From the NCBI GenBank assembly GCA_000934665.2, contig KZ539115.1:1-33086 (forward strand): a DNA stretch of 33,086 nt, read 5' to 3'. The position numbers were made by a program, and so were the translations under genes. Source of the DNA: Catajapyx aquilonaris (Eukaryota). This document shows, one piece after another, positions 956 through 20,600 of this stretch (its first letter is position 1; each line of letters begins with the position of its first letter). Under the pieces are notes generated by a model. That model was given only the letters and a program-made list of their open reading frames with translations, was not told where the DNA came from and ran no database searches.

Positions 956-3900
956 TTACAAAAGCCTCCCTCTGCAATCGGTGGACCCGCAATAGCAGTA
1001 CATGACTTTTCCTGGAACGCTCCCGACATCGTAGTTGTAGTCCCAGGTGAGTTCTGTTCCAGCTCGGATGTACGTCAGAGCGAAAAAGGCGACCCACGGG
1101 AATCGAAGATCCTGAGTGTCGACAAACACATTCTGGACGAACACGTTAGGCGAACATGAATGCTGTCGACGGGGAAAAAAAAACAGGTTAAGAAATGCTA
1201 CGAATGTTACGCCACGAGAGGAACTCACATTGAGGTATCGCCCGATGTTTCCAGTCGTTTTCGCGTCCATTATAAAGACCTCCTCGTTCCCAAAAAAATT
1301 CCGAACGGACACAAACTTATGCCTCATTATCTGCTCTTGCTGCTTATCCGGCTTGCTCTTGGCGTCAGGCAGTGCGGAGAAGCGCGATGGTTCACGTACA
1401 GCTTTTAAAACAATTAATTACATGTTATTAGTAATAGAGCAGCTGTCGGCAATTTAACGTACCTTCATTGGAGTCCTCTTCATCTGCGAGCCCACTGCCA
1501 TCTTCTCCGCTTTCAGACTTCTTCACCTTGCTTCTGGCCCCTTTCTCTTCGTCAGCCCCTTCCTTCTGAGCCTCCCCCTTCTCGTCTTGCGTCGACGTCA
1601 CTGGCTCACCCCCACTCTCGCCAGACGTCCTCCTCTTCCCGTTCCCGCCAGTCTTGCTCCTGGTGGCCCTTTCCATCCCGCCAGTGACTGTGGCTTGACT
1701 CGCTTGACCTCCAGGGATGCGAAACTCCTCGTCCGAATCAGTGCGTCCCGAGCCTCCAACCCACTCCTCTTCCGTGGTGCCTCCGTCTGACTTGTCCGAA
1801 TCATCGCCTATATAGGCCAGAAAAAAATACTCATGACATGTTCATTGAGTAACGCATGCAACATAATCGGCCAACATCAACAAAAGGCGAGGGTTAGTCG
1901 GAAAATTAGATTCATAATAATTAAAATGAAACACGCTGTAACAATAAAAGCACCAAATAACTTCACGGCAGTGAAAGCGAGAGAGAAAAACCGTATCCAA
2001 AGGCCATAATTATCTACTTCATTCGGTTAGTAATGTACGTAATGTCATAACGTATGTCAAGTCATAATGTCGTTATGTACGTAAAGTCATAATGTCGTTA
2101 TGTACGTCAAGTCATGATGTCGTTATGTACGTCAAGTCATAATGTCGTTATGTACGTCAAGTCATAATGTCGTTATGTACGTCAAGTCATATCATAATGT
2201 ACGTAAAGTCATGTCATAATGTACGTAATGCCGTAATAAAGCACCAAGCATGAGACAGCACGAGCCCAGGCTGTAAGCTGCTTCTCGGACAATGTTCTGG
2301 TTAATTAGGTGAGGTTGTTAATTAAAATCATCAAATCATAAAAAAATAAATACCTTCATCTGGATTTGGGTTCTTAGGCACAGCTTTCTTACCATCCGAA
2401 CCCTGACGATGGGAGTCTGACCCGCCCATGTCGTCCACTACGTCGCTTTCGTACCCTTCCTTGAATCGCTCCACGACTTCGATGTAATCCAATTCGGCCA
2501 GGTACTCGTCTCCGTAGGTCTTTCCGCCCTGTCGATTGAAACTGCGGTTAATACGCTGATCTTCCGCTGATCTTCGTTGTGCCGTTATACTGACCTCATT
2601 TGCTCCTTGCTCCGTCAGCAGCTGTCCGGCGTAGATGCAGATAAACCCGCCCCTGGGGATGTCGTGCAAGCAGCGTATCCCCCAGCCTCGCTTCTGCGTC
2701 TTGAACACCTGCAACTGCAGCTGCAAAGGATTCTGCACCACTCGGTTCAGGCAGGTCTTGCGGCACTTGCACCTTGCGTTGCACTCGTAAATTCCGGTCA
2801 CCACCGGTTCTAGAAGGCGGCGATACACGAATCCCACGTTCGGGTCAGCCGTAGCTCCGGGGCAATACGTCGTGCCTTGAATTGTGAGCTGCCAACAGGC
2901 GCACTTGTCTTTCGACTGGCAGTCATCCGTGCAGCTGCAGCCGATCAGGAATTCCTCGTCCAGATTCAGGTGCACGCCCTCCGTCGGCATGCGCTGGGTG
3001 CGGTACTCCAGGTACTCGGGGTAGCTACGATCCAGGCAGTTCACACAAGACACCGGCACATTTTCCTTACCATAAGAAAGGTCCTGCAAATGAGAAAAGA
3101 ATATTCGACCAAACTGTAACTGGCCACGCTTGAGCGATTCGCTCAGTGGTTTGCATCATGGAGCGATGAAACCAATTGTTCGGGGCGAAAGTAACAATCG
3201 CATTTCACTCCCAAACAATTACTTTCAATCACCAGCGATGCTCAAGGATGCAAATCACTCGCATGTAAACCCCGCATCATACGCAACTTTGAAACCCAGA
3301 CAATTTCAAGTACCTTCAAGTAGAAAATGTTCTCGGGGGGATGAAACTGGGCAAAAGCGTGGACCCAGAAGTCGAAGCAAAACAAGTCTATGCCGATTGT
3401 GGAATTAGTTATCCGCAAGTACAGATGAACCTCCTCGATGCTTCGCAGACGCCTGCCGCACGGGGTGTGGTAAATGATTTGGCGCTTTCCCATCCGGTAC
3501 TTCACCAGCTGCCTGAATGGAAAAAAAGAGGCAACGTTATCATGGGAACGCGTCGGCGATGCTCGAAACCCACCGTTTCCAGCCGCAGAGGATGGGTACG
3601 GCCAAAGGATTATTCTCTTTCATCTCCTCCATGTTGTACGGATGATTCCTGAGGCAAGAAGGATCGCACATGTGCGGGTAGAACTTGACGTGAGGCTGCT
3701 GCTGGTTCTGCACATACTGTAATTATAGAGCAAGCGACATGTAATTAATTATGTAGCGCTCATTCACAGATTAATTCCGGTATTTACATCTACTTAGCTT
3801 CATGTAGTGTGATCGCATCTAATTACGCACCATGTTATCGACACTTACGTTAATAACTCCTTCATGCTCTCCGAGAGGCTGCTCGTAAGAAGACGGCTTA

Positions 3901-6900
3901 GTTGCGACTGGCGAGGTGTTCAGAGTGGAAAGGCCAGGGACGCTCATGTTGCTCTCGATGGACAACATCTGGGGCTTCTTCGCAGTGCTCTTCCTGGCCA
4001 CCGCAGTCTTGGCCGCAGTCTGGTTAGCCCCCATCGTCAACACCTCCACTTCCAAATCCTCGTCGCCTGAAATGTGCGGATTGTTACAATTCGGCAGTTG
4101 AAGCTGGAAATCGACATGTGCTTTTCCTCTGGAAGCGTCCGCGGCGTAAGGCAAGTACTTACCGCTGACTTCCCGAACCTCGTCTATTCGGGTGTACTCA
4201 ACGTACGGTCCTTTTTGCTGAAATATTTAAAGAGCACCCATTACGACATTCCCTGGTGCACAACCAGATGAAAACCTGGCAATCAGATGAGGCCTAACCT
4301 TGCTGACAGTCGTGAGCTGTCTTCTCCTAACATGACCGGAACCTCCGCTTTCCTTCCTGGCTTCGGCGTTGGCCAACTCGCTAAAGAGCGGTCCCAGGCG
4401 AGTGGATCCGCGGTAAATCCATTCCGTGCGGTTGTCCGCATCGAAATGCATCTTCACGAGAGAGGCATCCACTTCCTCCACACGTGCCACCCACCATTTA
4501 GCTGCGAAAAGGTATTCCTTAAGTCCCCATCTTTTCCCGCAACACTGTAACTTCGCATGCTCGTACAATACGATCCAGGCCACGTTTACACGTGAGCGAT
4601 TCACTCAGCGATTAGTTTGGGAGCAAAGTGCGCTCCAAACAATGAGCGAATCGCTCTCATGTGGCCCACATACCGTTCCACTCAGTCTTGACGACTTGTC
4701 CTGGCTGCAGCTTGACCATGGGTCTCTCCGGAAACACCTCCAGATACTTCTGGATGAAAATCTGTGAGTCCGGATGCACGTCTTCCCAGACTTCCTTTGA
4801 ACTCTCGGTGACCAAACGGATCAGATCGTGCGGCACGTACTGGGCGTAACCATCGTCGAAGAAGACCAGGTAACGGAACTTGTTGGTGACCTTGGGAGGC
4901 TCGGCCACGATCCCCGAGTAATAGCTGTAGTTGCCCTTCCCGGTCCCTCCGCTCACGTCGTCTTGAAACACGGCCACGACTCTGGCTCCAACTGGTATGC
5001 GGTGGACTGCAGGGCCGTAGTACGCCAGGTGCTTACCGGACAAGACCTTGACCAAGGCGTACTTGCGGTTTGCGATGTCGAACTTGATCTTGTAAGTAGA
5101 CTAAGGGGAACAGAGATTAATCCAGTGAATTCATGACTCAAAGTGATCAATTGAACAGCAATTGCAACCTCGGTCCCTCTGTGTACGGCTTCCAACACGT
5201 GTGCTTTAGCCCAGGGAGTGAAGCAGCTCTGCCTCATAGCGTAACACGATTCTGAGGCCTTCAACTTCGGCCGAAGCATCGGTCCCTGCGGTGGTAGCGG
5301 AGGAGGCTGCAGAGGAACACGATCCACTTGCACCACGTCCTTCTGCGGAAAGAAGCAAACGGTAGCACCGAAAGTGTCGGAACACGTGCCGCACTTACTT
5401 CAGGGTTAACTTCGTTGAGCCGCACAATCTCAGGTTGTTCTCCGGGCGACTGTGGGTTGCGAATCTGGGTCACTTTTTTCATTGCGACGCCACCTGCAGG
5501 TACACAGACGTTAATATTGTTGCGTTACATACACAAAACGGCAGAGCACTCACCGTACTTCCGCTTCAGACCAGGGATTTTCCTGCGGCCCGGACCTTGG
5601 TTCTCACCATCTCCAGAGTGACGCGACTTGAAGCTCTGGTAATAACTCCTTGCTAACACAACGTTGCCACTCTCAGCAGACGAGTCATCCGACTGGACAT
5701 CCGTTATCTGCAACTCTGGAAGCTCCTGCAAAACAATAACGTGATTACTGCCTACTCATTTCAAATAACGACGTCCGACGCTTACTTTGAATCTAGGCTG
5801 AAAGTCTCGGTACAGCTCGTCTCTGAGGCTGTCCAGACTTTTCTCCAGCTTCGTAAACATTTCATCAACAATGACCACGCTCGCTTTATTCTTCTTAGTA
5901 CGTTCGGCTAAAATCCGATGGCTTTCTTCAATCTGGAAGCCAACGTCGTACTTTTTCATGACCAACGACATCGCCTCTTCGACGGAAATTTCAGTTTCCA
6001 CCGAATCCTCGTCGATACGACGAAGTTCTGGAACAGAAAAAGGGCAACTGTGAGCTGCTGGATAACTCGTAAGCTTGTCATAAAATTGGAAACAATGTCC
6101 TACTAGGACAATGAGGAAATCAACCATATTTTCACACGACAAGAAATATTTAATGATATTTGATACCTTCTTCGTCATCGTCGGACTCGTCCGTATCCAG
6201 TGAAACCACATTCGGCTTGTAAATTTTAATCTTTTCATTCACGACCGGCCGATGAGCTTCGGCCGCTTCGGTCAGAGCCTGTAAGAAAATGAAGATGAAG
6301 CGCTGACCAAAAAACGTGACGGAACATGCGATCGTACCTCTGTAAATTGCAGTGCGGGAAACAAGCAGGTCTCGCATATCTTTGCGACTTTGAGCAGCTG
6401 AAACTCAATCCTGTAGTAGTTCAGTGCATAAATTGGCGCAATATGCAAATTAGAGCTGGTACCGCAATCGGGATTGCAGCATTTCTTCCCAACTCGTCTC
6501 TTCCTATTCGTGGGCTTGTCGTCAACTTCAATCACTTCGAGATCGTCGTCGTCGTCGCTTCTGGCAATGCTAAGCGTGCTCCTTAGTATGCTGGCTTCAG
6601 GAAGAGCTCCTGTGTCCATTCCCATAATATCATTGATGGACGCCAAGGCCGAGTTTAGGATGGATTCGGGAATCAAGGCTTCGCCGCTTATTTTCCCCGA
6701 TTCGTTATCTTCCGTGTCCATCGAGAAGGCTTGATCCAACACGTCTCGTTCGGCTTGGCTCAGATCCTTGTAGTCGTCACCCTTTTTGGTACTGGACGCC
6801 TCCAGGATTTCAATATCAGTGTCTGGATCTGTGTCCGCGGCTTCCATCGCTTCGTCTTTCCCGGATTTTGAAGCCTCAGTTTGCTTTCCATTTAGCTCGG

Positions 6901-7189
6901 GAGCACTGACGGTGGGCTTGTCTTTTCGTGCCTCCCCGTTTTCCGCAGGCTCAGCTTCATTCTTGTTTGGTGCGGCCTCTTCAAGGTCCTTACTTTGCGA
7001 GGTGGCAATCGCATCTTTCGTCTCCTTGTTTGGGTCTGGCCCATCATTCGTTGTCGACGTAGTTTCCAGTGCCTCCGTTTCTTTCGCAGCTACGGACTTG
7101 CTGTCCGACTGTTGGGCACCATTTCCTTTTTCAACGGCCGCAACATCCTTGTCGATAATAGCGATCTCATCATCGCTATCGACATCCAT
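956..7189 (-). CDS. SETDB1: Histone-lysine N-methyltransferase SETDB1/eggless (Tudor region, MBD, pre-SET, bifurcated SET, post-SET), 17 coding exons
   Basis: Exons in transcript order: 6338-7189, 6167-6278, 5786-6027, 5554-5725, 5399-5493, 5169-5342, 4674-5100, 4299-4501, 4163-4217, 3849-4066, 3574-3716, 3314-3512, 2595-3083, 2354-2528, 1463-1807, 1229-1401, 956-1162. All introns are GT-AG and the exons sum to 4281 nt (1426 aa plus stop). Motifs: Tudor [23 protein letters not shown] and [24 protein letters not shown]; pre-[55 protein letters not shown]...GDEYLAELD, an insertion, then [22 protein letters not shown]; post-[16 protein letters not shown]. Confidence 0.97.
2031..2232. repeat. Minisatellite, about 25-bp unit (GTCAAGTCATAATGTCGTTATGTAC) with degenerate ends, in SETDB1 intron 1808-2353
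   Basis: About five near-identical units at roughly 2056-2190, flanked by decayed copies. Confidence 0.9.
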
Positions 7190-8442
7190 ATTTTCCCTCA
7201 GGCTGTCAGACCTATTTTTAAAAAAACGTCAAATTATGCGCTACCCAGTGTAAACATGTACTGGGGTCGTGCCCTCTCATTATAATTGAACGGGGTGGGA
7301 ATGTGACAACCACATGCACGTTGGTGATGAGTCAACGACTAGTGCGCTTCAACGCTGATTATCTCTGCAATGAGTCTGCTGAGCCCAAACATGACCTCTA
7401 CAAAATGTGTTTGTCTCGCTCAGAGGAGTCCGTCCTGCAAGTTTGGTCCGAAGCCATTGTGTCCACCCGGGGTCATACACAGACCGCGTTGTCCATACCC
7501 AGCTTCCTACTGGTCGCCAGTCCAGGGCTGGACCCCCAAATCGGCTCCTTCTTCTCCCGAGGATCCAACAATGGTCGGCTTGTCCAAGTCGTCCCAACAA
7601 TGCAAACCCGGCAACAAACGAAAGAGACTTGTCGTCGGAGTGGGTGGGCGTGGGTTGGAAATAAAAAAAGCAGGGTTGCCAGATGAACGGAGCAATGACC
7701 AGCTTGGGTGGTTGTACTACAGTACGTACATTCCCCTCATTATTTATAAATTGAATTGTACCGTCCATTATAATTACGCATTAAAATGTAATGAAATGGC
7801 TGCGGTCTGTGCCTCTGTTTGTCAGAAGGATATTCGCCACCTATGTGAGATGTATGGTAGTACGTTCATTGTTCGTCATGGGTTGCCAGGTTGTCCACTC
7901 ACTCATTTAGAGCCTCTCAAATTTAAATAAGTGCAATTGCATCTATAATAATTCATTCCATTATTTTATATATCATTTTCGATTATTTAAAAAATATATA
8001 TTTGTACCATGTAGGTTACCCTGATATCCTCCAGATTACCCTGTTCCACCAGCGGGGGACATTCGAATTCACATTTTTTAACTGTTTGTTCCCTAAATTC
8101 AACCAACAAATATGCTGTAAAATTATGTGTCGTAATTAATTTTATAAACAAATTGATGAATAATTGTGGAGACGTTCCAACCGTTCCTTCAGTCACAACT
8201 GGGTTGTATAAAGCGGCGGCCTGAATGCGCCCAACATGGCTGCCTTCTGAGTCTCCGAGATGATTTGTGGTCAACAAAATATTCTTGATTTTTTTATATT
8301 TTTTCGTGGATATATTTTGGTTGTTGCATGCCCGAAATGCTGCCAAAATTTATCAGCTAATATTTCTGGAGAGTTGTAAATTGTCTACACTAGTTATTTT
8401 TGATTGAAAGGTAGAAAAGAAAAGAAAAAAGTTTTTTACTTG

Positions 8443-8790: not shown

Positions 8791-9960
8791 TAGTGACCCT
8801 ACTGTTGTTTGCCGCACTTTCGTGGTGCAGGCGGCGGGTGTTGCCCAGGATTGCTTCCTACTGCCTCAGCAGTTTTTCAAGTTTTTATGACCACCCGCCT
8901 AGCCTCTGTCGTCATTTGCGTGAAATCTGGATGAGATAATATGGTTCCTCGATGAACAGCAGAACTGGGGTTTTCTCCAAAAATGCAAACACCTGAGAAT
9001 AAAATAATTATCAAGGCTGCACCATATAAATTTATGCCTATTTATTTCCAGTTTTGTTCTCGTTTTTTGAGGTTATTTTATTTAGACGGTTACATTAGAA
9101 AGAAGATACTATTATTTAATGAGTTTTTCAGACATCTGTTTTTCTGGCAAAGTGGACCATTGCAGGTGTGAAATGTTGTAGAAAATTATGACAATAAGAC
9201 CATTTTTTCCTGTCAGTAAAAGATGTGGCAATTCAAATTTTACTTAATTGGACTTAATTGTGCAAGCAAAGTCTTCATTCATTTCCGGGTGTCAAAAATA
9301 ACCAGAAACAAGTTCTGCACAGCATTGTTGTGGGCTGTAAACGTAGTGGTTCTGCATTCATGGGTAGAACTTGGGTAGAACGCAGGTGCAAGCAAAAAGA
9401 CATGTCTATACTGGATAGTCTTTAAGAACTTCAACAATATGTTTACTATCAACAAATCCTTCCTGCAGCACTGTGGAGACAATAGTAACCATGGGACATT
9501 ATTTGGAACTCATAGGTCATTATTGACAGGAAGCCTGACCACACGAGTCCGGTACTCACATTATTGTCATCCCTTGACTGGCACCGCAGTTGCAAATGGC
9601 TGCTGCTTAGAGGAAGGCTGCTGCCTCTCTGGAGTCTGGTCATTCACCTCAGTAGGTCACGCCTTGACCATACTCCTCCTATGATTTATGAGCATGATTC
9701 CCCTCCTAAAGTTTCATAGTAGGTGCCTTTCCCCTAGGGAAATATGCAGCTTTGTTTGGGTATTTCTTTGCCCACATTTGATTTGAAGAAATGAATCTGA
9801 GTTTTCTCTCATTAGATCCGCAACTGGGAAGTCCTGATGTGATTTAATTACTTATTACATCAAACTTTATTAAAAGAAGGTGTGGCCGAATAATGAGGAT
9901 CCCATTGCGATTTTTTTTTTGTACAAAACAATGCACTATACTCTCCTCATTCCACAGACC

Positions 9961-11472
9961 ATGCCCAGAAGGAAGCAGCCAAGAAGCCTCGAGAACCTGA
10001 GCCTGCGCACATTGGCCAACAATGCAGTGAAAGCCTGCAAAAGAAGCAGAGGCCGTCTCGAAAAAGAGATTATTTCACAGTATGTCTGCAGCATCCCAAA
10101 CATTCTTGCAAATGATTATGTGGTGGAGGTTCTGAGGGTGTGTTCAGGGTTGGATGAAGATTGCAACATTGCCAGTGCTCTTCATTGCAAGTGCACTGAG
10201 ATTATCCGCAGAGATTACATTGCAATCTCTACTAAATGGTATCATAAGTTGATTTCCAGTCTCCACGTCATGAGTGATTTACAAGTGCTTCAAGATGTCA
10301 GTGATGGTTGTAAGCAGAAAGGTAGAAGACGCAGAAGGCCCCATTCATTCCCTGGACTCGCCAAGCTGCGGATAATTGAAAGTCCCTTGATGACTTCCCA
10401 ACCTCTCTTGACACCAATAGTCCAAAGCTCTCCACAGCTGGAGGAGATTGTAATGAGCGGCATATCCACACCACCACAGGATTTGTGTCCTCTGGCAAAC
10501 TTGAAACGCCTGAGAAAAATCATATGTGTTACAGCCATCCAGCCCAGAGATGTGGTGCACCTACTGGAGAATCTTCCCAAATTAGAAGTGTTGACAATTA
10601 GTGATGTGAAAGGCGTTCTGTCACTGTGCCAGCACCCCTATCCTTGTTTGAAGGACTTTGCCGCATGGACCTATGTGGAGGGCATCATGCTTGAAAAGGT
10701 TGCAATCTACTTCCCAAACCTGGAGAACCTTTTCCTGCAGTTGGGTGAACAAGAAGCAGATCTAAGTCCAGTAAACATACTAACCAACCTCAAGAGTTTA
10801 ATGATTCAATCAGCAACAGCTTCCCTTCTTCTCTGCTTGTTGGACAATTGCATGAGCCATCTTACCAGCTTGGCTTTGTTCAATTTGCATGGACTCGATC
10901 CCGTATTTGGACCGAACAGAAACCTATCCTTCCCCCTACTTGAGTGCCTGATTATATACTCCTGCTATGGAGTCAACCTGGCAGCCATTGGGGAGATCTT
11001 CCCTAACCTAAAGTCACTTCAGGCTAATTATAATGAATTCACTGGATTGCATCTGTACCCAACTGCTCATGCCTTTCAAGCGATTGAAGATTTTATAGTG
11101 GATGCTACAATGCCAAGGAGATATATCCGACATATCTTGTCCAGGGAGAATCTGAAGAACCTTCAAATAATGTGCAATGATCATGAGTCACTTATTGTGT
11201 GCACTGAACTTTTTCAAGACATGAGACAGGAAGCTCTGCAAACACTGACGATCCATGACAACTGCATGACAAAGGAAGTGATTCCAGTGATTTTGGGTTC
11301 AAGTGGAGATGATTTGCAATATGTGTGTTTGGGTAGCGAAAGGGTCATTTTGTCGAGTAGTGAGTGTGAGGAATTGTCCTATCAATTGCAGCCTTATGAC
11401 ATGATTTTCGATATTCATTTCTGTAAATACCCCCAACGCCAGACCTACTTCAAGTATGATTCACATAAATAA
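9961..11472 (+). CDS. Leucine-rich-repeat protein (503 aa) with N-terminal BC-box-like motif; PRAME/ZYG11-like candidate cullin substrate receptor; intronless CDS
   Basis: An acceptor (CTCCTCATTCCACAG|ACC) directly precedes ATG 9961. The N-terminus is MPRRKQPRSLENLSLRTLA. LRR units include SPQLEEIVM, LPKLEVLTI, FPNLENLFL, LTNLKSLMI, MSHLTSLAL, FPLLECLII and FPNLKSLQA. The ORF is an uninterrupted 1.5 kb with AATAAA downstream at 11621. Confidence 0.85.
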   Translation: MPRRKQPRSLENLSLRTLANNAVKACKRSRGRLEKEIISQYVCSIPNILANDYVVEVLRVCSGLDEDCNIASALHCKCTEIIRRDYIAISTKWYHKLISSLHVMSDLQVLQDVSDGCKQKGRRRRRPHSFPGLAKLRIIESPLMTSQPLLTPIVQSSPQLEEIVMSGISTPPQDLCPLANLKRLRKIICVTAIQPRDVVHLLENLPKLEVLTISDVKGVLSLCQHPYPCLKDFAAWTYVEGIMLEKVAIYFPNLENLFLQLGEQEADLSPVNILTNLKSLMIQSATASLLLCLLDNCMSHLTSLALFNLHGLDPVFGPNRNLSFPLLECLIIYSCYGVNLAAIGEIFPNLKSLQANYNEFTGLHLYPTAHAFQAIEDFIVDATMPRRYIRHILSRENLKNLQIMCNDHESLIVCTELFQDMRQEALQTLTIHDNCMTKEVIPVILGSSGDDLQYVCLGSERVILSSSECEELSYQLQPYDMIFDIHFCKYPQRQTYFKYDSHK

Positions 11473-11626: not shown

Positions 11627-13499
11627 AGTGTCTTTCCTGTCAGCAAATTCATATGTGGAATTGGAATATTTTCCCTCTTAATATCAGGCTTGTAGCAGGG
11701 AGCATATACTGTACAGTAATTGTGGTTTACTACTTTCAACAGGGCAGTGTTGCTTTAAATACCTGACAAGGTATGAAAAATATTGTTAATATCCGGGGTG
11801 TCCAGAATTGACCAATACATACTCACACGTCATAGTCAGTCCGATATTGTAAGGCCAGCCGCACTTGGAATAAGTATGTGCAGTGCAACTAATGTCATCC
11901 TCACAGTTCAGACTCAACAAAATATATCTTCCCGGTTCCCCAAAACCTGGATTGGTATGCTTGGCTAGTTGCCCTTGAAGCACCAAGGTCCTGAAGGAAA
12001 TATTATTCCCCACAGACCGCCCAAGACCTATGGACTCAAAAAACAGACTCAAAAGTAAAACAAGAAAAAAAAAAGACAGGTTGATTATAATTAAACTACT
12101 TAGTATTTTCTGTAAATAGGTCGAGTTAAATGAAATAAATTGACTACATATAAATGGAAAAGGTTAAAAGAAATTGAACTGAATAATTTTTCAAAAATGA
12201 ATCAGGATTTATTTAGAAAAATCATGTAATGAAATGGGATTGAACATATATTACTGTAAATATCCAAATGATTGGAAACTGATAATGAGAGTGCATGATT
12301 GTAAATTTCATAATGGAAGTTGATAGAAAGGATTTAAATCATTAGCTTCAGAGTGAACGGTGACCATCACGGCACTGCTAGCCTGTAAACAACTGGCAAA
12401 AAATTAATGCAATTTTTCTTTAAAATAATTTGGGGAAGATAAATACACACCTGTGTAAGAAAAATACCCTTGTGTACGAAAAATATAATGAAGATAAATA
12501 CACTTGGGGAATATAAATACACTTGAAAAATTTATGCAAAATTATCACTAGGCTCATGAGCAAAAATTAACCAGAGTTTAAGCCATAATAAAATTAAGGC
12601 AAGTTTAAAGGCACCATATATATTCATTTCTGAGCCTGTTCAAAATTTAAATGCATTGCTAAATATATTCAAAAACTTTTTAAATGCATTGTTCAATTCA
12701 AAACTGAAAAGCCAGATTTCATCATAGTGCCGGATTCAAAAGGTTTAAAGCAGGGCTTCATGCAGCAAAAATTAATTTCTGGCAATAATTACATTTAAAA
12801 AGTGAGAGTGTGTCATCTGAAGAATGTTATACGTTAATTCAAAAAAATCAGTTTTCTTTTCACTCTCTCAAGAAGATGAAAAAAAATTTCAGAACACTCG
12901 CCAATCCTCTTGCGCACTGGAAGAGACAAAAACAAACACAAAAACATCGCATCCCGAGATTTGATGGTGACCATAAACACCCGAATTTAATGAATGCTTA
13001 ACTTTAATCGACATTACATAAATAGGAAATTATTCAGAGCACTTGAACTGATTAATTATTCGAATAATTAAGAATCAGCAGTTTCAAGAATTTAAATTAA
13101 AATCAGTATAATTGGTGATTGCTGTAAATATGCAAATTGTGGATTTAATTGACTGGAAATTGATAGTATAATTACAGCCTGATTGCAAATTGAATTTGAC
13201 GTAATGCGTAATTTCGTTTCAGAGTGAACGGTCACCATCACAGACCTGCTACCTAGAGAAAAATCAATGCAATTTTCTTTCAAATCATTTCAAATTTTAA
13301 AATTATTTCAGCGCAAAAAAAAAATTAATCCAAAAATTTACTATTTTTTTCTGCCAAAATTACTGCTTTAAAATTCCTGACATCTGTCAGTATAAATTAA
13401 TATGTGGAATTGCAATTTTTTTTACCACTCTTAATATCGGCATTGTTGGAAATTTCTTTTGAAATGCAAATTTTACGATGATAAAAATATATTGTTTGA

Positions 13500-13852
13500 A
13501 AATATCTACGATAGCGTTAATAACGTTCGTACGAGTAGCAGCGACTTTTCAGGAGTGATTAATCGCGCTTTATTTTGGGATTGGTTCACGTTCCCTCAGT
13601 CAATAATGTTCATTCAGCCATCGGAATCGTCTTAATCATAATTATTTCCATCCGATTTTTTGAAGCAAAATTATCATCCCGTCGTTTAAGTATGTGATCA
13701 GATAAATAGTTATTACATACTCTTTGGTAAATATAACGTTCCATCCTTGGCTGTTCCTTGGGCGGCCGTCGGAATGCACCCGGAATTGATGATCTGCTTC
13801 ATCTGCTTCAAGTTTGTCCAACTTTGAGCGATAATTATCATTAAAATTCCAG
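13500..13852. promoter_or_regulatory. Probable promoter and non-coding first exon of the repeat/zinc-finger gene, possibly bidirectional
   Basis: CpG content rises locally against the AT-rich, CpG-poor flank. A perfect donor CAG|GTAAGT at 13852/13853 and an acceptor TCTTTCCCCAG ending at 13911 define a 59-nt intron just before ATG 13917. Confidence 0.5.
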
Positions 13853-13916
13853 GTAAGTCTCTCAATTAATTACGTGCCACATATTTTTAACGTTGCATTG
13901 TCTTTCCCCAGACGAG

Positions 13917-16477
13917 ATGGCGCCGCCTAAGAAATCAGTTGCCGCACTGCAGAGGTCTGCTGAACGACGCAGGACGTACCAGAGGGTTTACATGCAAGGT
14001 GTTCGTAACAGTAACTCTGATTACCGGACTTTGGAGAGGCAGCGAAACGCCGAGGTTCGTCGTCTGCTGCGTCAGGACCCGGCGTACAGAGAGGACGAGA
14101 GGCAGCGCAACACAGAGGCACGTCGCCTGTTGCGTCAAGACCCGGCGTACAGGGAGAGAGAAAAGCAGCGCAACGCTGAGGCTCGTCGTCTGTTGCGACA
14201 AGACCCGACGTACAGAGAGAGGGAAAAGGAACGCAACGCTGAGGCACGTCGCCGGTTGCGTCAAGACCCGGCCTACAGAGAGAGAGAAAAGCAGCGCAAC
14301 GCTGAGGCACGTCGCCGGTTGCGTCAAGACCCGACATACAGAGAGAGGGAAAGGCAACGCAAAGCTGAGGCTCGTCAATTGTTGCTCGAAGACCCGACGT
14401 ACAGGGAGAGGGAAAACCAATGCAACACTGAGGCTCGTCGTCTGTTGTGTCAAGACCCAGCATACAGAGAGAGGGAAAAGCAACGCAAAGCTGAGGCTCG
14501 TCGATTGTTGCGTCAAGACCCGGCGTACAGGGAGAGGGAAAAGCAGCGCAACGCTGAGGCACGTCGCCGGTTGCGTCAGGACCCAGCATACAGAGAACTA
14601 GAGAAGCAGCGCGACGCAGAGGCTCGTCGGATCAAACGCAAAGCAGCGAAACAGCAGGAGCATGACGCTGTGGCTCATCGCAAGGCACTAGAAGCTGCAC
14701 TTCCATGGGAACATGTAACTCATCATTTTCAACAACATAATACTCATAGGTCCAGATCAGCCGTACACATGCTGCTCATTAAAGGTCCTTTCGAGGGAAA
14801 CGTTCATCAGATCCCAACCAGCAAGGGGTTAGTCACTTGATAAAATAGCGCACAACGGACTTTACAAACTACGACTGGACTTCAAGAACTTATTGTCCAC
14901 TTCAGTCATACTTCACAAACGTGTCCGGACTTCAGCCGGATTTCAGTCTAGGTGTACAATATAGATTCATAAGTGACTAACCCCTTGGCAACTGGTCTGA
15001 AGATAATCAAGGGATTTTTTTTTCAATGTGTCATGATGTCAGAATGGATCTCACAAGTTTTGCTTCAGATGCTAACAATGCAGGCTTAAATGGTTGGACA
15101 CCATGATTTTGCATTGCTAATGGTTTTTAAATCCATCATTGTTCCAAAAACAAGTATGTGACCTCATGCCTGGTGTCAGGACATCACCTTTTTCCATCTA
15201 TTTGGTGTGTTAATGTACCGGACAATTGCGCACCACAGGACGGATGTAATGTCCCATAAGGATAGGCATGTGTCTATGTGTTTTGATGGGTTTGATGTGT
15301 TAGGATCCGCAAAGAGGACAAGAAGCCTGTCATGGAGTAACCAATTACAGGTTGAGAATCATTTATCTGAAATACTTGGGACCAGCAGATTTTTGGAATT
15401 CTGATTTTTTTCGGATTTCGGACTACTGTATGTGTATTTGCATCTATGAAATGGGACAGATTTGGGATGGGATAAATGGCGTAACACGATATCCATAAGC
15501 ATTTCTTATCCCCTTCACTACCAGAACCACGTAGATTTCGGCTTACGCCTACTCCAAAGATACGAACAAGATATTTGACTTGTAATAACAGCTACCGGTT
15601 CAGGGAAAACGCTATGAATGTGTCTGGAACAATTCCACTCGTCTGGAAGTCCCTCAATTAACTTCCAAAAAAAGGCTATAAAGACTGGAAATTAGAGTAC
15701 TGCTGACCAACTGTTAGGCTGATTTAATTGTTAATTGTGTGAAAATATGCGGAATAACAACCTTGAAAACCATGGCAGACGAATTTGCTGAAATCGTCGT
15801 ACTTCATGAGAAGCAAATAAATTTGAGAGTTTGTGATGTTTCACGTCAGCAGGTATGTTGTTATTAATACATGTTGTTTTTTACAGCGTGAAGATGCCAT
15901 TGGTTGCTTAAACCATTGCATGCCTACCATATCTACAGATGCGGAGATTAAAACAGAGAATGCCAGTGATGAGTGCATTGGTTGTGTTCCAACTGCAAAG
16001 ATTAAAACAGAGGACATAAGTGATGAGAGCATCAGTATTACCGAGACGTGGCAAGAGCAATTGCAGGAAAATCCAGTGCCCCTAGGGTCACTGGTGGATG
16101 AGGAAATTACAGTGGAGGAAGGTGCTTGTGAAGTGAAGCTGGAGGTCACTGATGAAGAAATGCTGGTGGAAGTACCACAAGTGACCGATGAAGAGCAAGA
16201 CCCACTTGAAGTCAATTCCGCTGACGTGAACTGCAATGAAACATCAGCGACTGGTTCTGATCCTAATTGTGATAGAAGCTGCAATGTGCCAGGCTCAAGA
16301 TATGTGGATAAGTGGTTTACATGTGGTGTATGTCAGACTTCATTTTTGACGGAAGGCCTTTTGACTCTGCACATGGGTATCCATGCGAACGAGAAGCCTT
16401 TCACTTGTACCTTCTGCGGGAAAGTGTTTGCCTTTCATGAAACTTGGGCGATTCATGTGAAAAGTCACATAAATTGA
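13917..16477 (+). CDS. Putative two-coding-exon protein (about 462 aa): 21-aa charged tandem repeats, an acidic region with IKTE/VKLE motifs and two C2H2 zinc fingers
   Basis: Exon 13917-14714 ends at a phase-0 donor CAT|GTAACT. Exon 15887-16477 starts at a phase-0 acceptor TGTTTTTTTACAG|CGT. Fingers FTCGVCQTSF..LHMGIH and FTCTFCGKVF..IHVKSH are joined by an ANEKP linker. Each exon is well supported; their joining is inferred. Unspliced, the first ORF stops at 14840. Confidence 0.65.
14034..14630 (+). repeat. Coding tandem repeat, 63-bp/21-aa unit (EKQRNAEARRLLRQDPAYRER), about 9.5 copies
   Basis: Nine full units plus a partial unit, read directly in the ORF, with no indels between units. 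Confidence 0.97.
14822..14987. mobile_element. MITE-like element with 17-bp inverted repeats
   Basis: CAAGGGGTTAGTCACTT (14822-14838) and AAGTGACTAACCCCTTG (14971-14987). No clear TSD. Confidence 0.65.
15348..15510 (+). mobile_element. Left end of a pogo/Tigger-type element resembling Tigger4/MER46
   Basis: TA|CAGGTTGAGAATCATTTATCTGAAATACTTGGGACCAG...GATTTTTTTCGGATTT...TATTTGCAT...TTGGGATGGGA. This matches my recollection of the Tigger4/MER46 terminus and has the TA target at 15346-15347. No right end seen. Confidence 0.65.
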
Positions 16478-17629
16478 TGTGTGAGAGTGGTTGTAGTTAT
16501 GTCACAGCCACATTTTATAACAACTATGTAATATAAATATGTAACAAATATCTAATATATATGACGTTAAGAATGTAGCAAATCCTATGGCAAAATGTCA
16601 CTCATCTTTCTTTCATTCATGACATTTTATTGGAAATAGTGTAAGCGTGTTACAGGGCAATATGTTGTATACAATCGCAATGAATTTTGCACTGGAATGT
16701 CTCACTCCGTAACTTAGCTTGGCTCTGCATCTAATTATGCGTACAGGTTATTTTTATATGTGCAAACAGGATGTGACACTGCATACCAGAAATTGCTTGT
16801 GCCCTATGCATCGCCTAAATGCCAGGCCTGTAACTGCAAGTGTAATAAGTACGTACCACTTCTTATAGGAGTACTGTACTGTACAGTACAGTTAGTAGTT
16901 TGTTGTAGAAATCATGAGTCCTCTTGTCAGCTGCCAATATTAGCCCCTTCCAGTTATGTGTCTTGGCAAGTCGAGGGAGGAACTTGGGTTGCGGATGTGC
17001 CAGGATGAATATCCAATCACTGTACATCTGAACGTGCACATGAAGCATGATCACGTCTGCTGGACTTTGTCATGCAATCAAAATCATTCAAAATTGCAAC
17101 GAGGTTAATAATTTCACACACTGCAAAGGTTTCTTCACTCAAATATCACTTGAATATGAGCTGCGATGGGACTCAAACAACAGTAATTAAGCAAATGCAT
17201 ACTTAATTATTTTTTATTATTAATTTTAGTGAATTTCTTGTCACATTCTGGTTACATATCATCATTTCATGTTCACATTGGACGTTACCGTCCTGTCGGT
17301 CAAGTCTGTAGGAACCGTGTACGACGCATGTTGCACTGTGTGTTATTGTAGCATATGTTAATAATAAGTGTGTCTTATAACAACTAATATGCCATTCAAT
17401 AATTTTATGAGCAGATCTATAAGAGCGGATCACCCAAAAAAAAAAAAAAGAAGCACAACTCGGCCACAACTTTCACAACAAAAAAATTGGATTTCTAAAA
17501 ATTTAAGTGCAAAAAACAGAATAAATGCAATGAAAGTCACTATCCAAAAAATTAATGCGGCTTATTTCTATCCCTCACAAAAATAGCAGTTACATATGTA
17601 CGATGGCCTATTTATTGTTTGCTGCTTAT

Positions 17630-20600
17630 TTATGTGTTGTTGTTTATCTGTGTTTCCTGAAGCTGCGCCTGGGTCTCATCGTACTGCTCTTCTGTCGGGG
17701 CTGACCCTGTCACGCGAAGGGTCAGTCGCTTCGGAAGGGTGGTCAGAGCCTTGCGGGTACCTGGGGTCAAAGGGTTGTCCCTGAGGTCAAGCTCTTGCAG
17801 GGACGTGCGTGTCCGTACTGCCTCCACATCAATTTCTGTTGGCATAAAACAGTGTGTCATGTTCATTGCTAAATTGAGCAGATCTGCTACCTTACTCATT
17901 TACCCAACTATGTGCGTCCTCGGTTGACAATGAGTAACTTAGCAGACCTGAGTCTCTCATTTGAGCTATAAGTAAAAGTGTGTTCGGACTCACCAGCGAT
18001 GTGGTTCTTGAAGGCTATGATGTTAGCGATGCAATTCAATTTCGTCAAAGCCTTGGGCAGAGTCTCGAAGGAATTTCGAGCTATGTTGACAATACGAAGC
18101 CTGTTCAATAGACCCAACTCATCCGGTAGTTTGGTCAACCTGTTCTTATACAGGTTCAGTTCTAAAGATAAAATTAAAACCAACACATTAATTAACCCTC
18201 TAATTAGTTGATGCCTTTGATGTGTCTACATGTGGCTTACATTAAAGGTGTCAGACCCATGCAAATTGTGATGATACGCTGTCAAAAATGTCACGGTGTG
18301 CTGTCAAAAAATGTCATGGTGTGTAGTTGTTGCAAACAAACTATTTTGTATGTAGGAAATATGCCAAATTTTTTTTGCGAATGAAATAATTGTTATATTG
18401 GCCACTTTTTTTCCTGAAACAACAGGTTCCAGACGGCCAACGTCATTCTAATGTGTATTTATAGAAGCACTTTTAAGACACTTTGCCAAGGGCTTGTGAT
18501 GAAGAACCTGCGAAGGGGCCTCTGGAATTGCTTCTTTTTTTGTGGTGGTGGTGGTGGTACCCCCATACCCATGAAGATACTTGTTACCGACTCACATAAT
18601 TTGGCTAGCATCGCAGGACAGGAGGAGGTGAAAATAAGTTGGATGGTGTTATGCTAATCGCTTCTTCCGTTCGTTTGTTGTTACCAACTGTTTGGCCACG
18701 GTACAAAAGGCACGACGTGTGAGAATAAAGTAGAAGAAGAAGTGTGACGCCAAATGTGAGTCAACCTCTGTGTGCAAGGTCGCAGAAAAGGATTCGTCAA
18801 CGACTGTGAATCTGATTAATTATTATTGGTCCAAGATAAAGATCTGATCTGTTAATTGCCCATATTTATTTCATATTCACAGTTTTGATCGACATCTACA
18901 CTCGATTTGTTTGTTTTCTTATTTATTTGTTACTAAGCTTAGTTTCTCCTCCTCACCCACCAGAGGCGCTGTTTCCTCCCATTGCGCAGGCGCAGAACGG
19001 GGCCAATCAGACGCCTTGGTCATACAACAAAATATTTAAATGCTATTCATTCAATTGTCTGTTTGCTTTCTTATTTATTGTATTTTATTTTATTTATTTT
19101 AGTTCCTCCTCACATCCACCCGAGGCGCTGCTTCCTCTCATTGCGCAGGCGCAGAACGTTTCTCAAACAATACTGTATACGGCGGGCTGATCAGAATAAG
19201 CCTCGATCATACAAATGAGGATATTTATTTACTATCAGGATACCCAGCGTTGCTCGGGTAATGAAATACTTTGAATGAATCGATGTATCGATGCTACATC
19301 CGGGGTTCCTGATTTTCCTCCCTTTCGCCTCATGTGGCCAAGGATGACCCCGGAGGTCACGTCCAATGTGCTAAAAACCTTCCCCGTTAAAAACTACCCC
19401 TAATGATCACCCTGGGGCATACTTCAAGGCCTCCATATTGATTTGCATCGGAAACAAGGGGACATACTTTGTGAAATATGTATAAGATTTATTTATTTAT
19501 TTACTTACTAATGGAGTTAGTTTGTTAGTAGGGCTGTGCGATATTTCGATACATCGACTGTCGATACGATATTTTCCTGATATCGAAGCTGCGATATCCG
19601 ACGCTTGGCACGTTCGATGTATCGAATATCGCGATTTTTCGATGTCGGTTCGATGTCGGTTTTCGATATCGGTTTCCGATATATTTCGATGTCGGTTTTT
19701 CGATTTTCGATTCGATATTTTTTAAGTATCGAAAGTCGATATGTAATTTCGGATATCGCACAGCCCTATTTGTTAGTTTGTCTGCGTGCTTGCTTATAAA
19801 TGCCTCCTCCCACCCACCAGAGGCACTGTTTCCTCCCATTGCGCAGGCGCAGAACGGGACCAATCGGAAGCCTCGGCCGTACAACGAAGGATTTTTTTAT
19901 TCATTTGCTTGCTTATTTATTATTTATATTATTATTAGTTTCTCCTCCCGCCCACCAGAGGCGCTGCCGCGCGTTGCTTACTCCCATTGCGCAGGCGCAG
20001 AACGGGACCAAACGGAATCGTCGCTCAAACAATATACGGCGGGCCTATTAGAAGTCATATACTGATATCCAAGGATTTCAATGCTATTAATTAATTAATT
20101 AAGACGAACGCCTTATTTGCCGAATGGCACATGCTATTTGACTGCAATTCTCTGAATACTTTGTGCGCGCCTAATTAATCGGCTGATGCTTCAACAGCTT
20201 AATTAGTCTGGTCACATGGCCAACTATGCGTAGTTCCTGACTTTGCTATGTGTGATAGTAAAAAATAGGAATGTCATTTCATGGCTGGAAGCCTCGACCT
20301 TTTCTATTTCTTTTTTTTTTTTTAACACTCGAATGAAGTGGAATGCAGACGGGTCGACCTCGGGTAGGCCTATTTTAATTGCGCATAAGTTAGGTACAGA
20401 AGTCTCGATTAAATTAAATTTGTCAAATAGTGTCATTCGAAATAGTTATAACATCGCATTTGTGATAGGCTAATCATAGCTATTTCGAATGGACGTCTAC
20501 AATTTTTTTTCAAGAAAAGATTGGGAAATCGAGCGTGATTCTAGTATACTTTTCTCATAGAGCCTCATAAGCCTTTTTTTCGACGATAAAAACGGTCAGC

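Follow-up and report, generated by a model that had tools for sequence, protein, structure and literature searches.

A transcribed gene of Catajapyx aquilonaris that probably joins a Helentron repeat array to a zinc-finger exon

We describe a gene on contig KZ539115.1 of Catajapyx aquilonaris in which an exon related to the N-terminal repeat array of Helentron transposases is spliced, in phase, to an exon encoding two C2H2 zinc fingers. The gene lies on the forward strand of a 33-kb window (33,086 nucleotides, the whole stretch of DNA that was analysed), which is animal DNA with a G+C content of about 40%. Our best explanation of the locus as a whole is a transcribed three-exon gene for a 462-amino-acid chimera of Helentron array and zinc fingers, which would read DNA by the mechanism proposed below; with that mechanism included, we give it a probability of about 0.6.

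Results

Structure and splicing of the gene

The gene is made up of the following features, given with their positions in the window and their strand (UTR, untranslated region; MITE, miniature inverted-repeat transposable element; TRF, Tandem Repeats Finder; X1, the sequencing run described below).

13787..13852, +: 5′ UTR exon; its 5′ end is the contig end only (X1 contig 13787-13848/52 to 13908/12)
13853..13911, +: 5′ UTR intron, 59 nt, GT..AG (spliced contig, depth 4.2)
13912..14714, +: first coding exon; coding sequence from the ATG at 13917-13919, 266 codons (protein P0001)
14039..14629, +: tandem array, 9.4 copies of 63 bp (TRF)
14715..15886, +: intron, 1172 nt, phase 0, GT..AG (912-nt contig, 0 mismatches, depth 6.89)
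14822..14987, no strand assigned: MITE-like insert, 166 bp, with 17-bp perfect terminal inverted repeats, within the intron
15887..16477, +: terminal exon, coding part, 196 aa (protein P0002); codons 15887-16474, stop 16475-16477
16322..16384, +: C2H2 zinc finger 1 (CGVC...HMGIH); regular expression C-x2-C-x12-H-x3-H, Pfam zf-C2H2 and zf-H2C2_2
16406..16468, +: C2H2 zinc finger 2 (CTFC...HVKSH); regular expression, and best stretch of Pfam zf-C2H2 (residues 172-194)
16478..16658, +: 3′ UTR, to the contig end (X1 contig unspliced up to 16658)

Transcript evidence came from Logan contigs of X1, the only public run with this stretch (32 million letters, of a kind not on record). Ten X1 contigs fell on positions 12500-18500, five at an identity of at least 99% and five at 90-95%. 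A contig of 912 nt joins 14575-14714 to 15887-16658 without a mismatch, across a GT..AG intron and with 140 nt on its shorter side. Another, of 312 nt, aligns as 13787-13848 plus 13908-14157 with 0 mismatches; the joint is equally placeable 4 nt rightward, at 13852/13912, which yields GT..AG borders and an intron of exactly 59 nt (13853-13911) with the boundary letters CAG/GTAAGT ... CCCCAG/ACGAGATG. A third contig removes the CT..AC intron 17836-17993 of the adjoining minus-strand gene. Because three introns are gone, each on the correct strand, the simple reading is that X1 is RNA. No X1 contig covers 14158-14574, in mid-array, a gap that is expected of contigs assembled from short words across a repeat. 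Host-transposase fusions have their exons joined within one mature transcript, and such a joint was found here in one contig of one run. The donor GT occupies 14715-14716 and the acceptor AG 15885-15886, with phase 0 on both sides; joining the first coding exon to the terminal exon at this phase gives a predicted product of 462 aa.

A preliminary description of the locus, made from the letters alone, had placed the exon borders, the LPWEH end, the phase-0 donor (14714/14715) and the acceptor at 15887, and every one of these coordinates holds on the sequence. The junction 14714-15887 that it predicted is the one spliced without mismatch in X1, and the 5′ UTR intron that it drew at 13853-13911 is removed, with GT..AG borders, in one contig. 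Its count of about 9.5 indel-free 21-aa repeats agrees with the 9.4 copies and 0% indels given by TRF, and the acidic exon with IKTE twice, VKLE and two C2H2 fingers was located as described, the Pfam finger scores lying over their cut-offs. It had also named a different upstream exon for the zinc fingers as the rival arrangement; none was present in the contigs, a weak result from one run only.

The first coding exon resembles the N-terminus of HLE2 transposases

P0001 consists of a basic leader of 41 aa, the 21-aa repeat array and a tail of 37 aa with the LPWEH end. Its relatives were found by an exhaustive phmmer search of 1.84 billion representative proteins, which gave 278 at E ≤ 1e-3; a limit of 1e-10 leaves 54 of these and one of 1e-30 leaves 3. 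The best 150 of the 278 were scanned with Pfam at E ≤ 1e-5, and the domain counts that follow refer to these. Of these relatives, 27 had DUF6570, 6 had Helitron_like_N and 6 had PIF1; any of the three is present in 29 of the 150 (hereafter, the marked proteins) and in 13 of the 30 at the top. Other domains were OTU (4), Herpes_teg_N (4), HNH (2) and C2H2 fingers (1, in P0018). According to the available part of the HELIANO study (PMC11417382), DUF6570 and Herpes_teg_N hardly occur outside HLE2 (Helitron2/Helentron) elements, and DUF6570 is proposed as an HLE2 marker. Relatives with DUF6570, OTU and Herpes_teg_N therefore identify the kin of exon 1 as Helentron-type (HLE2) transposases.

Four full-length relatives (P0016, P0025, P0064 and P0128; 1784-2474 aa) carry an N-terminal array, DUF6570, Helitron_like_N and PIF1, in that order. 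Named Rep-helicase relatives come from Calliphora vicina, Chrysoperla carnea and Pinctada imbricata, and shorter marked ones from Polypedilum and Frankliniella. A Cys4 (C4) motif, GPxYxCxxC, is located after the array in marked proteins and recurs in five further relatives among the best 150 of 278. In P0035, P0039, P0040, P0107, P0055, P0056, P0089 and P0143 the array sits behind a cysteine protease of the OTU or Herpes_teg_N type and ahead of DUF6570. In several relatives the N-terminal part of HLE2 is accordingly laid out as protease, array, C4 and DUF6570.

DPx[YFW] motifs at a spacing of 21 residues recur in many relatives, the marked ones included. Across 91 units taken from 22 of the 29 marked proteins, the frequencies were 0.98 for E8, 0.97 for R20, 0.80 for D1, 0.97 for Y/F4 and 0.67 for N/D12. 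The unit of the window, DPAYREREKQRNAEARRLLRQ, carries all HLE2 signature residues (D1, Y4, R5, E8, N12 and R20), and P0001 thus has the N-terminal 21-aa array with D1, Y/F4, E8, N/D12 and R20 by which we tested HLE2 membership. In 13 prokaryote-like relatives the units have D1, P2 and F/Y4 but not E8, N12 and R20. On the marked proteins a score of 40 bits was reached by the true P0001 in 29/29 cases and by reversed or shuffled P0001 in 0/29, a control of composition only, because the target set had been picked with the true sequence. The similarity continues beyond the repeats: the exon 1 tail ...RKALEAALPWE aligns with ...RKFKRQQLVPWE of P0030, which is followed there by GPMFPCFSC and DUF6570, and a leader of the pattern M-[APG]-P-x-K-K-(K)-S is found in many relatives, marked ones too (for example MAPRKKKS in P0043).

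Set beside the HLE2 RepHel transposases XP_065370889.1 (C. vicina), XP_044742323.1 (C. carnea) and KAK3105661.1 (P. imbricata), the gene has in common the 21-residue period and the signature D1, Y/F4, R/K5, E8, N/D12 and R20. The array likewise stands at the very N-terminus behind a short basic leader, and (L/V)PWE closes the tail, as it does in P0030. The difference lies in what follows, as the window gene is without GPxYxCxxC, DUF6570, Rep and PIF1 and has an acidic C2H2 exon spliced on instead. These comparisons support the assignment of the first coding exon, on sequence grounds, to the N-terminal module of an HLE2 rolling-circle transposase, with a donor that would cut this module just ahead of the Cys4 motif, DUF6570, Rep and PIF1 continuation of HLE2 proteins. 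The preliminary description had pointed out that Rep-helicase proteins often begin with tandem repeats and had seen a Helitron or Helentron likeness in this array; the four full proteins with an N-terminal array bear out the first point, and the second is borne out by the 29 marked proteins among the best 150, on which shuffled or reversed queries score nothing.

The repeat array and its putative role in DNA binding

TRF describes the array as having a period of 63 nt with 82% matches and a score of 732. Each 21-aa unit has a net charge of about +3, and P0001 as a whole, with 80 K+R against 48 D+E, about +32. When the nine in-frame units are compared with their consensus, 14, 10 and 39 changes fall at codon positions 1, 2 and 3, and the pooled ratio of nonsynonymous to synonymous differences (pN/pS) between the units is 0.23 in frame, whereas the shifted frames give 1.26 and 1.74. 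Because the units differ mostly at third positions and pN/pS is low, we conclude that the array diverged under constraint at the level of the protein.

No fitting model for P0001 was found in Pfam, PHROGs or NCBIfam (matches to InvH and FF lay under the cut-offs), and the ESM Atlas held no match at 0.9 or more. An AlphaFold2 (AF2) model of the single P0001 sequence (pLDDT 90.3, pTM 0.38) consists of one 20-residue helix per unit, interrupted only at the Asp of each Asp-Pro.

The closest structural parallel is offered by STPRs (peptide repeats of a score and three amino acids). The STPR arrays of Bombyx FMBP-1 and ZNF821 likewise consist of tandem short basic helices, one per repeat, each begun by an acidic cap residue. 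ZNF821 combines an STPR array with C2H2 fingers. As far as the available texts go, STPR units are strictly 23 residues long with Glu1, Thr/Ser2 and Arg9 (PMC4856987), and Pfam STPRs occur almost only in HLE1 Helitrons, where they stand upstream of RepHel (PMC11417382). We rejected an assignment of the array to STPR, its period being 21 and not 23 and its unit starting with Asp-Pro. The Pfam STPR models gave no P0001 match at E ≤ 1 and matched none of the 150 best relatives at E ≤ 1e-5; among PDB entries the FMBP-1 STPR chains had no sequence match at E ≤ 10 and no Foldseek match. Of the comparison with STPR and FMBP-1 made in the preliminary description, only the likeness of architecture stands (21 against 23 residues, with no sequence match).

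By analogy with STPR arrays, a string of about ten helices, each a 20-residue basic helix begun by an Asp-Pro cap, would lie along DNA and bind an extended site. That site would most plausibly be the type of sequence bound by the parent transposase, Helentron or HINE DNA. The array would on this analogy be the DNA-homing part of HLE2 transposases, an ability retained in the fusion. The two fingers would add contacts, and the acidic region with its SUMO motifs could recruit chromatin or transcription cofactors.

The array might instead be a stiff spacer (a single alpha-helix or coiled coil) or a region for RNA binding or nucleolar targeting rather than a DNA reader. Its R/E-rich composition would suit such a role, as would helices that are predicted with high confidence but show no tertiary packing (pTM 0.38) and the lack of a match to any solved DNA-binding fold in our searches. 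The Asp-Pro break at each 21 residues, however, makes ten short helices and not one long one, and single alpha-helices rich in E, R and K are near-neutral in charge, unlike the array at about +32. Transposases and homing-type nucleases, which have to locate DNA, moreover carry the module, and we hold the spacer or RNA role to be very unlikely.

The window holds no further part of a Helentron

We searched the window for the remainder of the element. Helitron_like_N (Rep, HUH) and PIF1-type helicase domains were absent from P0001 and P0002 by Pfam and from the 33-kb window by tblastn. When 153 proteins, P0001 and P0002 included, were compared with the window by tblastn, only the finger exon was matched outside exon 1, by P0002 itself and by the generic fingers of P0018. 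When the window, cut into 1354 six-frame pieces, was searched with a profile of C4 (GPxYxCxxC) plus DUF6570 built from 18 proteins, the best match had an E of 0.76 and lay at an unrelated place. An inverted-repeat scan around exon 1 found no bracketing terminal pair, only the intronic MITE. With no remaining Helentron open reading frame (ORF) in the intron or window, the locus is not a decaying full Helentron.

The frame of exon 1 continues for 41 codons beyond the donor, to a stop at 14838-14840 supplied by the first bases of the MITE-like insert. Within this read-through, VTHHF...IKGPFEGN was considered as a relic of the F..I..GP motif of HLE2 and rejected, as the alignments were of the repeat-slippage kind and the profile gave an E of 4.9 for 14719-14829. 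X1 contigs of 90-95% similarity to the insert have loose ends at 14824 and 14985, which suggests that the MITE-like family is multi-copy and transcribed.

A second X1 contig overlap at 90-95% similarity runs from 15740, where it has a loose end, to about 15886, directly upstream of the finger exon. It could be taken as a sign that the array exon, intron and finger exon travel together as cargo of a multi-copy, non-autonomous Helentron. Against such mobile cargo, exon 1 and the finger exon have no 90-95%-similar contig and a depth that corresponds to a single exact contig; no terminal structure was found around the unit, and ordinary host genes (SETDB1-like and leucine-rich repeat, LRR) adjoin it. 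This is the account that we find hardest to credit.

The overlap at 15740-15886 may represent a paralogue or an alternative first exon, together with a short ATG-led frame at 15772-15853 that ends in a strong CAG/GTATGT, 33 nt before the finger-exon acceptor.

The zinc-finger exon

The finger exon, which we take to be of host origin, is acidic: the first 140 residues include 34 D+E and 7 K+R. Three ψKxE motifs, which resemble the SUMO consensus, lie within it (IKTE at 15947-15958 and at 16001-16012, VKLE at 16133-16144), each with acidic residues after it; three such motifs were reached in 27 of 20,000 residue shuffles of the exon. Both fingers have the form C-x2-C-x12-H-x3-H with their ligands intact, as members of the C2H2 class do, and in Pfam P0002 scored 26.9 bits for zf-C2H2 (cut-off 25.2) and 29.8 for zf-C2H2_4 (cut-off 27). 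In the ESM Atlas P0002 matched generic C2H2 clusters only.

Arrays of the same type outside transposases

A protein of similar layout, P0018 (753 aa, known from Logan contigs only), has a MAPP leader, 4 units at 63% identity and a collinear tail (42 residues, 40% identical). An acidic region follows, and the protein also contains five finger-like motifs and three ψKxE motifs. Its fingers share 31% identity with those of the window, a generic level, and P0018 is alike in layout only; the two differ in having 4 units against 9.4 copies and five finger-like motifs against two fingers.

The best single match to P0001 (P0008/P0154, E 5e-40) is a large G+C-rich exon at 2106-3983 of the metagenome contig L001, which has 5848 nt, a G+C content of 40% and a eukaryote-like character; P0008 is without a Helitron or finger domain. 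The exon seems to start at an acceptor-like site (...FFFQ/G), and an open frame with IKLE and VKEE precedes it. P0008 may be a further capture of the array module, with the exon order reversed. A metagenome scan gave no locus for P0010 and two for P0008 (L001 and L002), both without Helitron or finger domains. From P0018 and P0008 it follows that the array module occurs outside transposases more than once.

DPx[YF] repeats of 21 residues also adjoin HNH, homing-endonuclease-like and restriction-type nuclease domains in prokaryote- or phage-like proteins (P0005, P0077, P0153, P0106 and P0003), where they are without the E8, N12 and R20 signature. For these repeats Pfam yields only off-target matches to GerD and STI1-DP, and the 21-residue repeat may represent a DNA-targeting module that is widespread but has not been modelled.

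Origin of the fusion

Capture of a Helentron module by a gene is the parsimonious direction, because in HLE2 proteins of several animal phyla the array always stands at the N-terminus and fingers occur in only 1 of the 150 best relatives. The start codon and the donor site would then derive from the transposon, as would the DNA-binding array, while the downstream exon would have contributed the effector tail and fingers as well as the 3′ end.

Several observations weigh against this account. Each splice junction is a single contig from a single run of unrecorded kind, at a depth of 4-7. A word-based search for the finger exon among longer proteins returned 0 matches, with no orthologue found, and the gene's own product is absent from a collection of 5.8 billion protein clusters. 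The low pN/pS does not demonstrate selection in the host, because the constraint may date from service in the transposase. The leader MAPPKKS... is only suggestive when compared with MAPRKKKS or MPKLKKQTAAQ, 17 to 148 of 500 shuffles reaching the score. DNA binding by the array rests on analogy, and the array gave 0 matches at E ≤ 10 both in a sequence search of the PDB and with Foldseek against the PDB. The units closest to those of the window belong to P0018, P0008 and P0004, which are without Helitron domains, and 21-aa DPxY repeats are also found in prokaryotic and phage HNH and homing-endonuclease-like proteins.

Much of this would suit a fortuitous chimera, in which the dead 5′ fragment of a Helentron happens to lie upstream of a finger exon and is joined to it through its own promoter and a chance donor, with no selected function. 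The low contig depth, the finger exon without an orthologue, the missing product and a selection signal in the array that could predate capture all fit, and so does a MITE within the intron. A chance joint accounts less well for an ORF that is intact and in phase over both exons, with intact finger ligands, or for the enrichment of ψKxE seen in the shuffles. The absence of any decaying Helentron ORF remainder from the intron and window, and the same layout in P0018, also speak against it. We judge this chimera unlikely, while granting it real weight.

Transfer in the reverse direction keeps some weight because the closest units are in proteins without Helitron domains. Here an old cellular DPxYRE array would be ancestral, the window gene, P0018 and P0008 would form a host family, and HLE2 would have captured the array. 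The nearest units (P0018, P0008/P0154 and P0004), the eukaryote-like contig L001 with P0008 and the extension of the repeat type into prokaryotes are all in keeping with this, and HELIANO, in the part available, argues for repeated domain capture by HLEs (PMC11417382). The array is nevertheless fixed at the N-terminus, upstream of DUF6570, in HLE2 from insects, a mollusc and a nematode record; there is further agreement with HLE2 proteins in the tail and, with less certainty, in the leader; C2H2 fingers occur in only 1 of the 150 best relatives of 278, and many of the domain-less matches are short fragments, possibly pieces of Helitron ORFs. We therefore consider an origin of the array in the host quite improbable, and continue with capture from a Helentron.

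Neighbouring genes

Three further genes or open frames lie around the fusion gene.

956-7228, -: SETDB1-like histone methyltransferase gene, multi-exon, with Tudor_5, MBD, Pre-SET and SET domains
9874-11472, +: open frame of 532 aa with weak LRR matches, which may be intronless
17462-18225, -: LRR gene, with intron 17836-17993 removed in an X1 contig

Upstream of the fusion gene, at a distance of about 7-13 kb, is the SETDB1-like gene. SUMO-dependent recruitment of SETDB1 is a known theme, and the proximity of this gene to one with SUMO-consensus motifs is probably a coincidence.

Discussion

The gene can be placed among host-transposase fusions as one with a Helentron source and transcript evidence, for which we infer a function as a host regulator. 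Genes built from the DNA-binding domains of transposases are a known source of new regulators. To our knowledge, the catalogued transposase-derived fusion genes come from cut-and-paste transposons. Host-transposase fusions that arose by transposase capture, such as KRABINER, are described in the available part of a preprint on vertebrates (10.1101/2020.05.07.082677), in the full text of which the word "Helitron" has 0 occurrences. As in the KRABINER type described there, the DNA-binding part of a transposase is spliced to an exon of another gene to give a candidate regulator; the source in the window differs, being a rolling-circle Helentron and not a cut-and-paste transposon. The window fusion differs also in that its first coding exon, with the donor, is what comes from the transposon, and not the 3′ exon. 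In the usual orientation of capture a 3′ exon from the transposase stands behind a host KRAB or SCAN domain.

Fungal host-transposon fusions also carry Helitron-derived coding sequence in host-type proteins, and those in the available part of that report involve helicase, PIF1 and Helitron_like_N, whereas the window gene keeps the N-terminal repeat module only (PMC10799480). In the literature searched we met no description of a fusion between a Helentron N-terminal array and zinc fingers, with the reservation that supplementary tables could hold cases.

A wider proposal is that arthropods have repeatedly turned the Helentron array on the element itself, through SUMO-motif finger fusions that form a small KRAB-like repressor family with a new modular class of DNA reader. 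We offer it as speculation and think it rather improbable. If true, the array would read Helentron or HINE DNA and the fusions would bring SUMO-dependent heterochromatin machinery to those repeats; the 21-residue repeat would then be a modular class of DNA reader common to HLE2 transposases and prokaryotic homing-type nucleases.

The window gene keeps only the front module of a Helentron, in a fusion with transcript evidence. HLE2 transposases carry a 21-residue helical repeat without a Pfam model, in parallel to the STPR arrays of HLE1. This repeat may read DNA at one helix per few base pairs, and would then be of interest for studies of transposon targeting and for the design of modular DNA binders.

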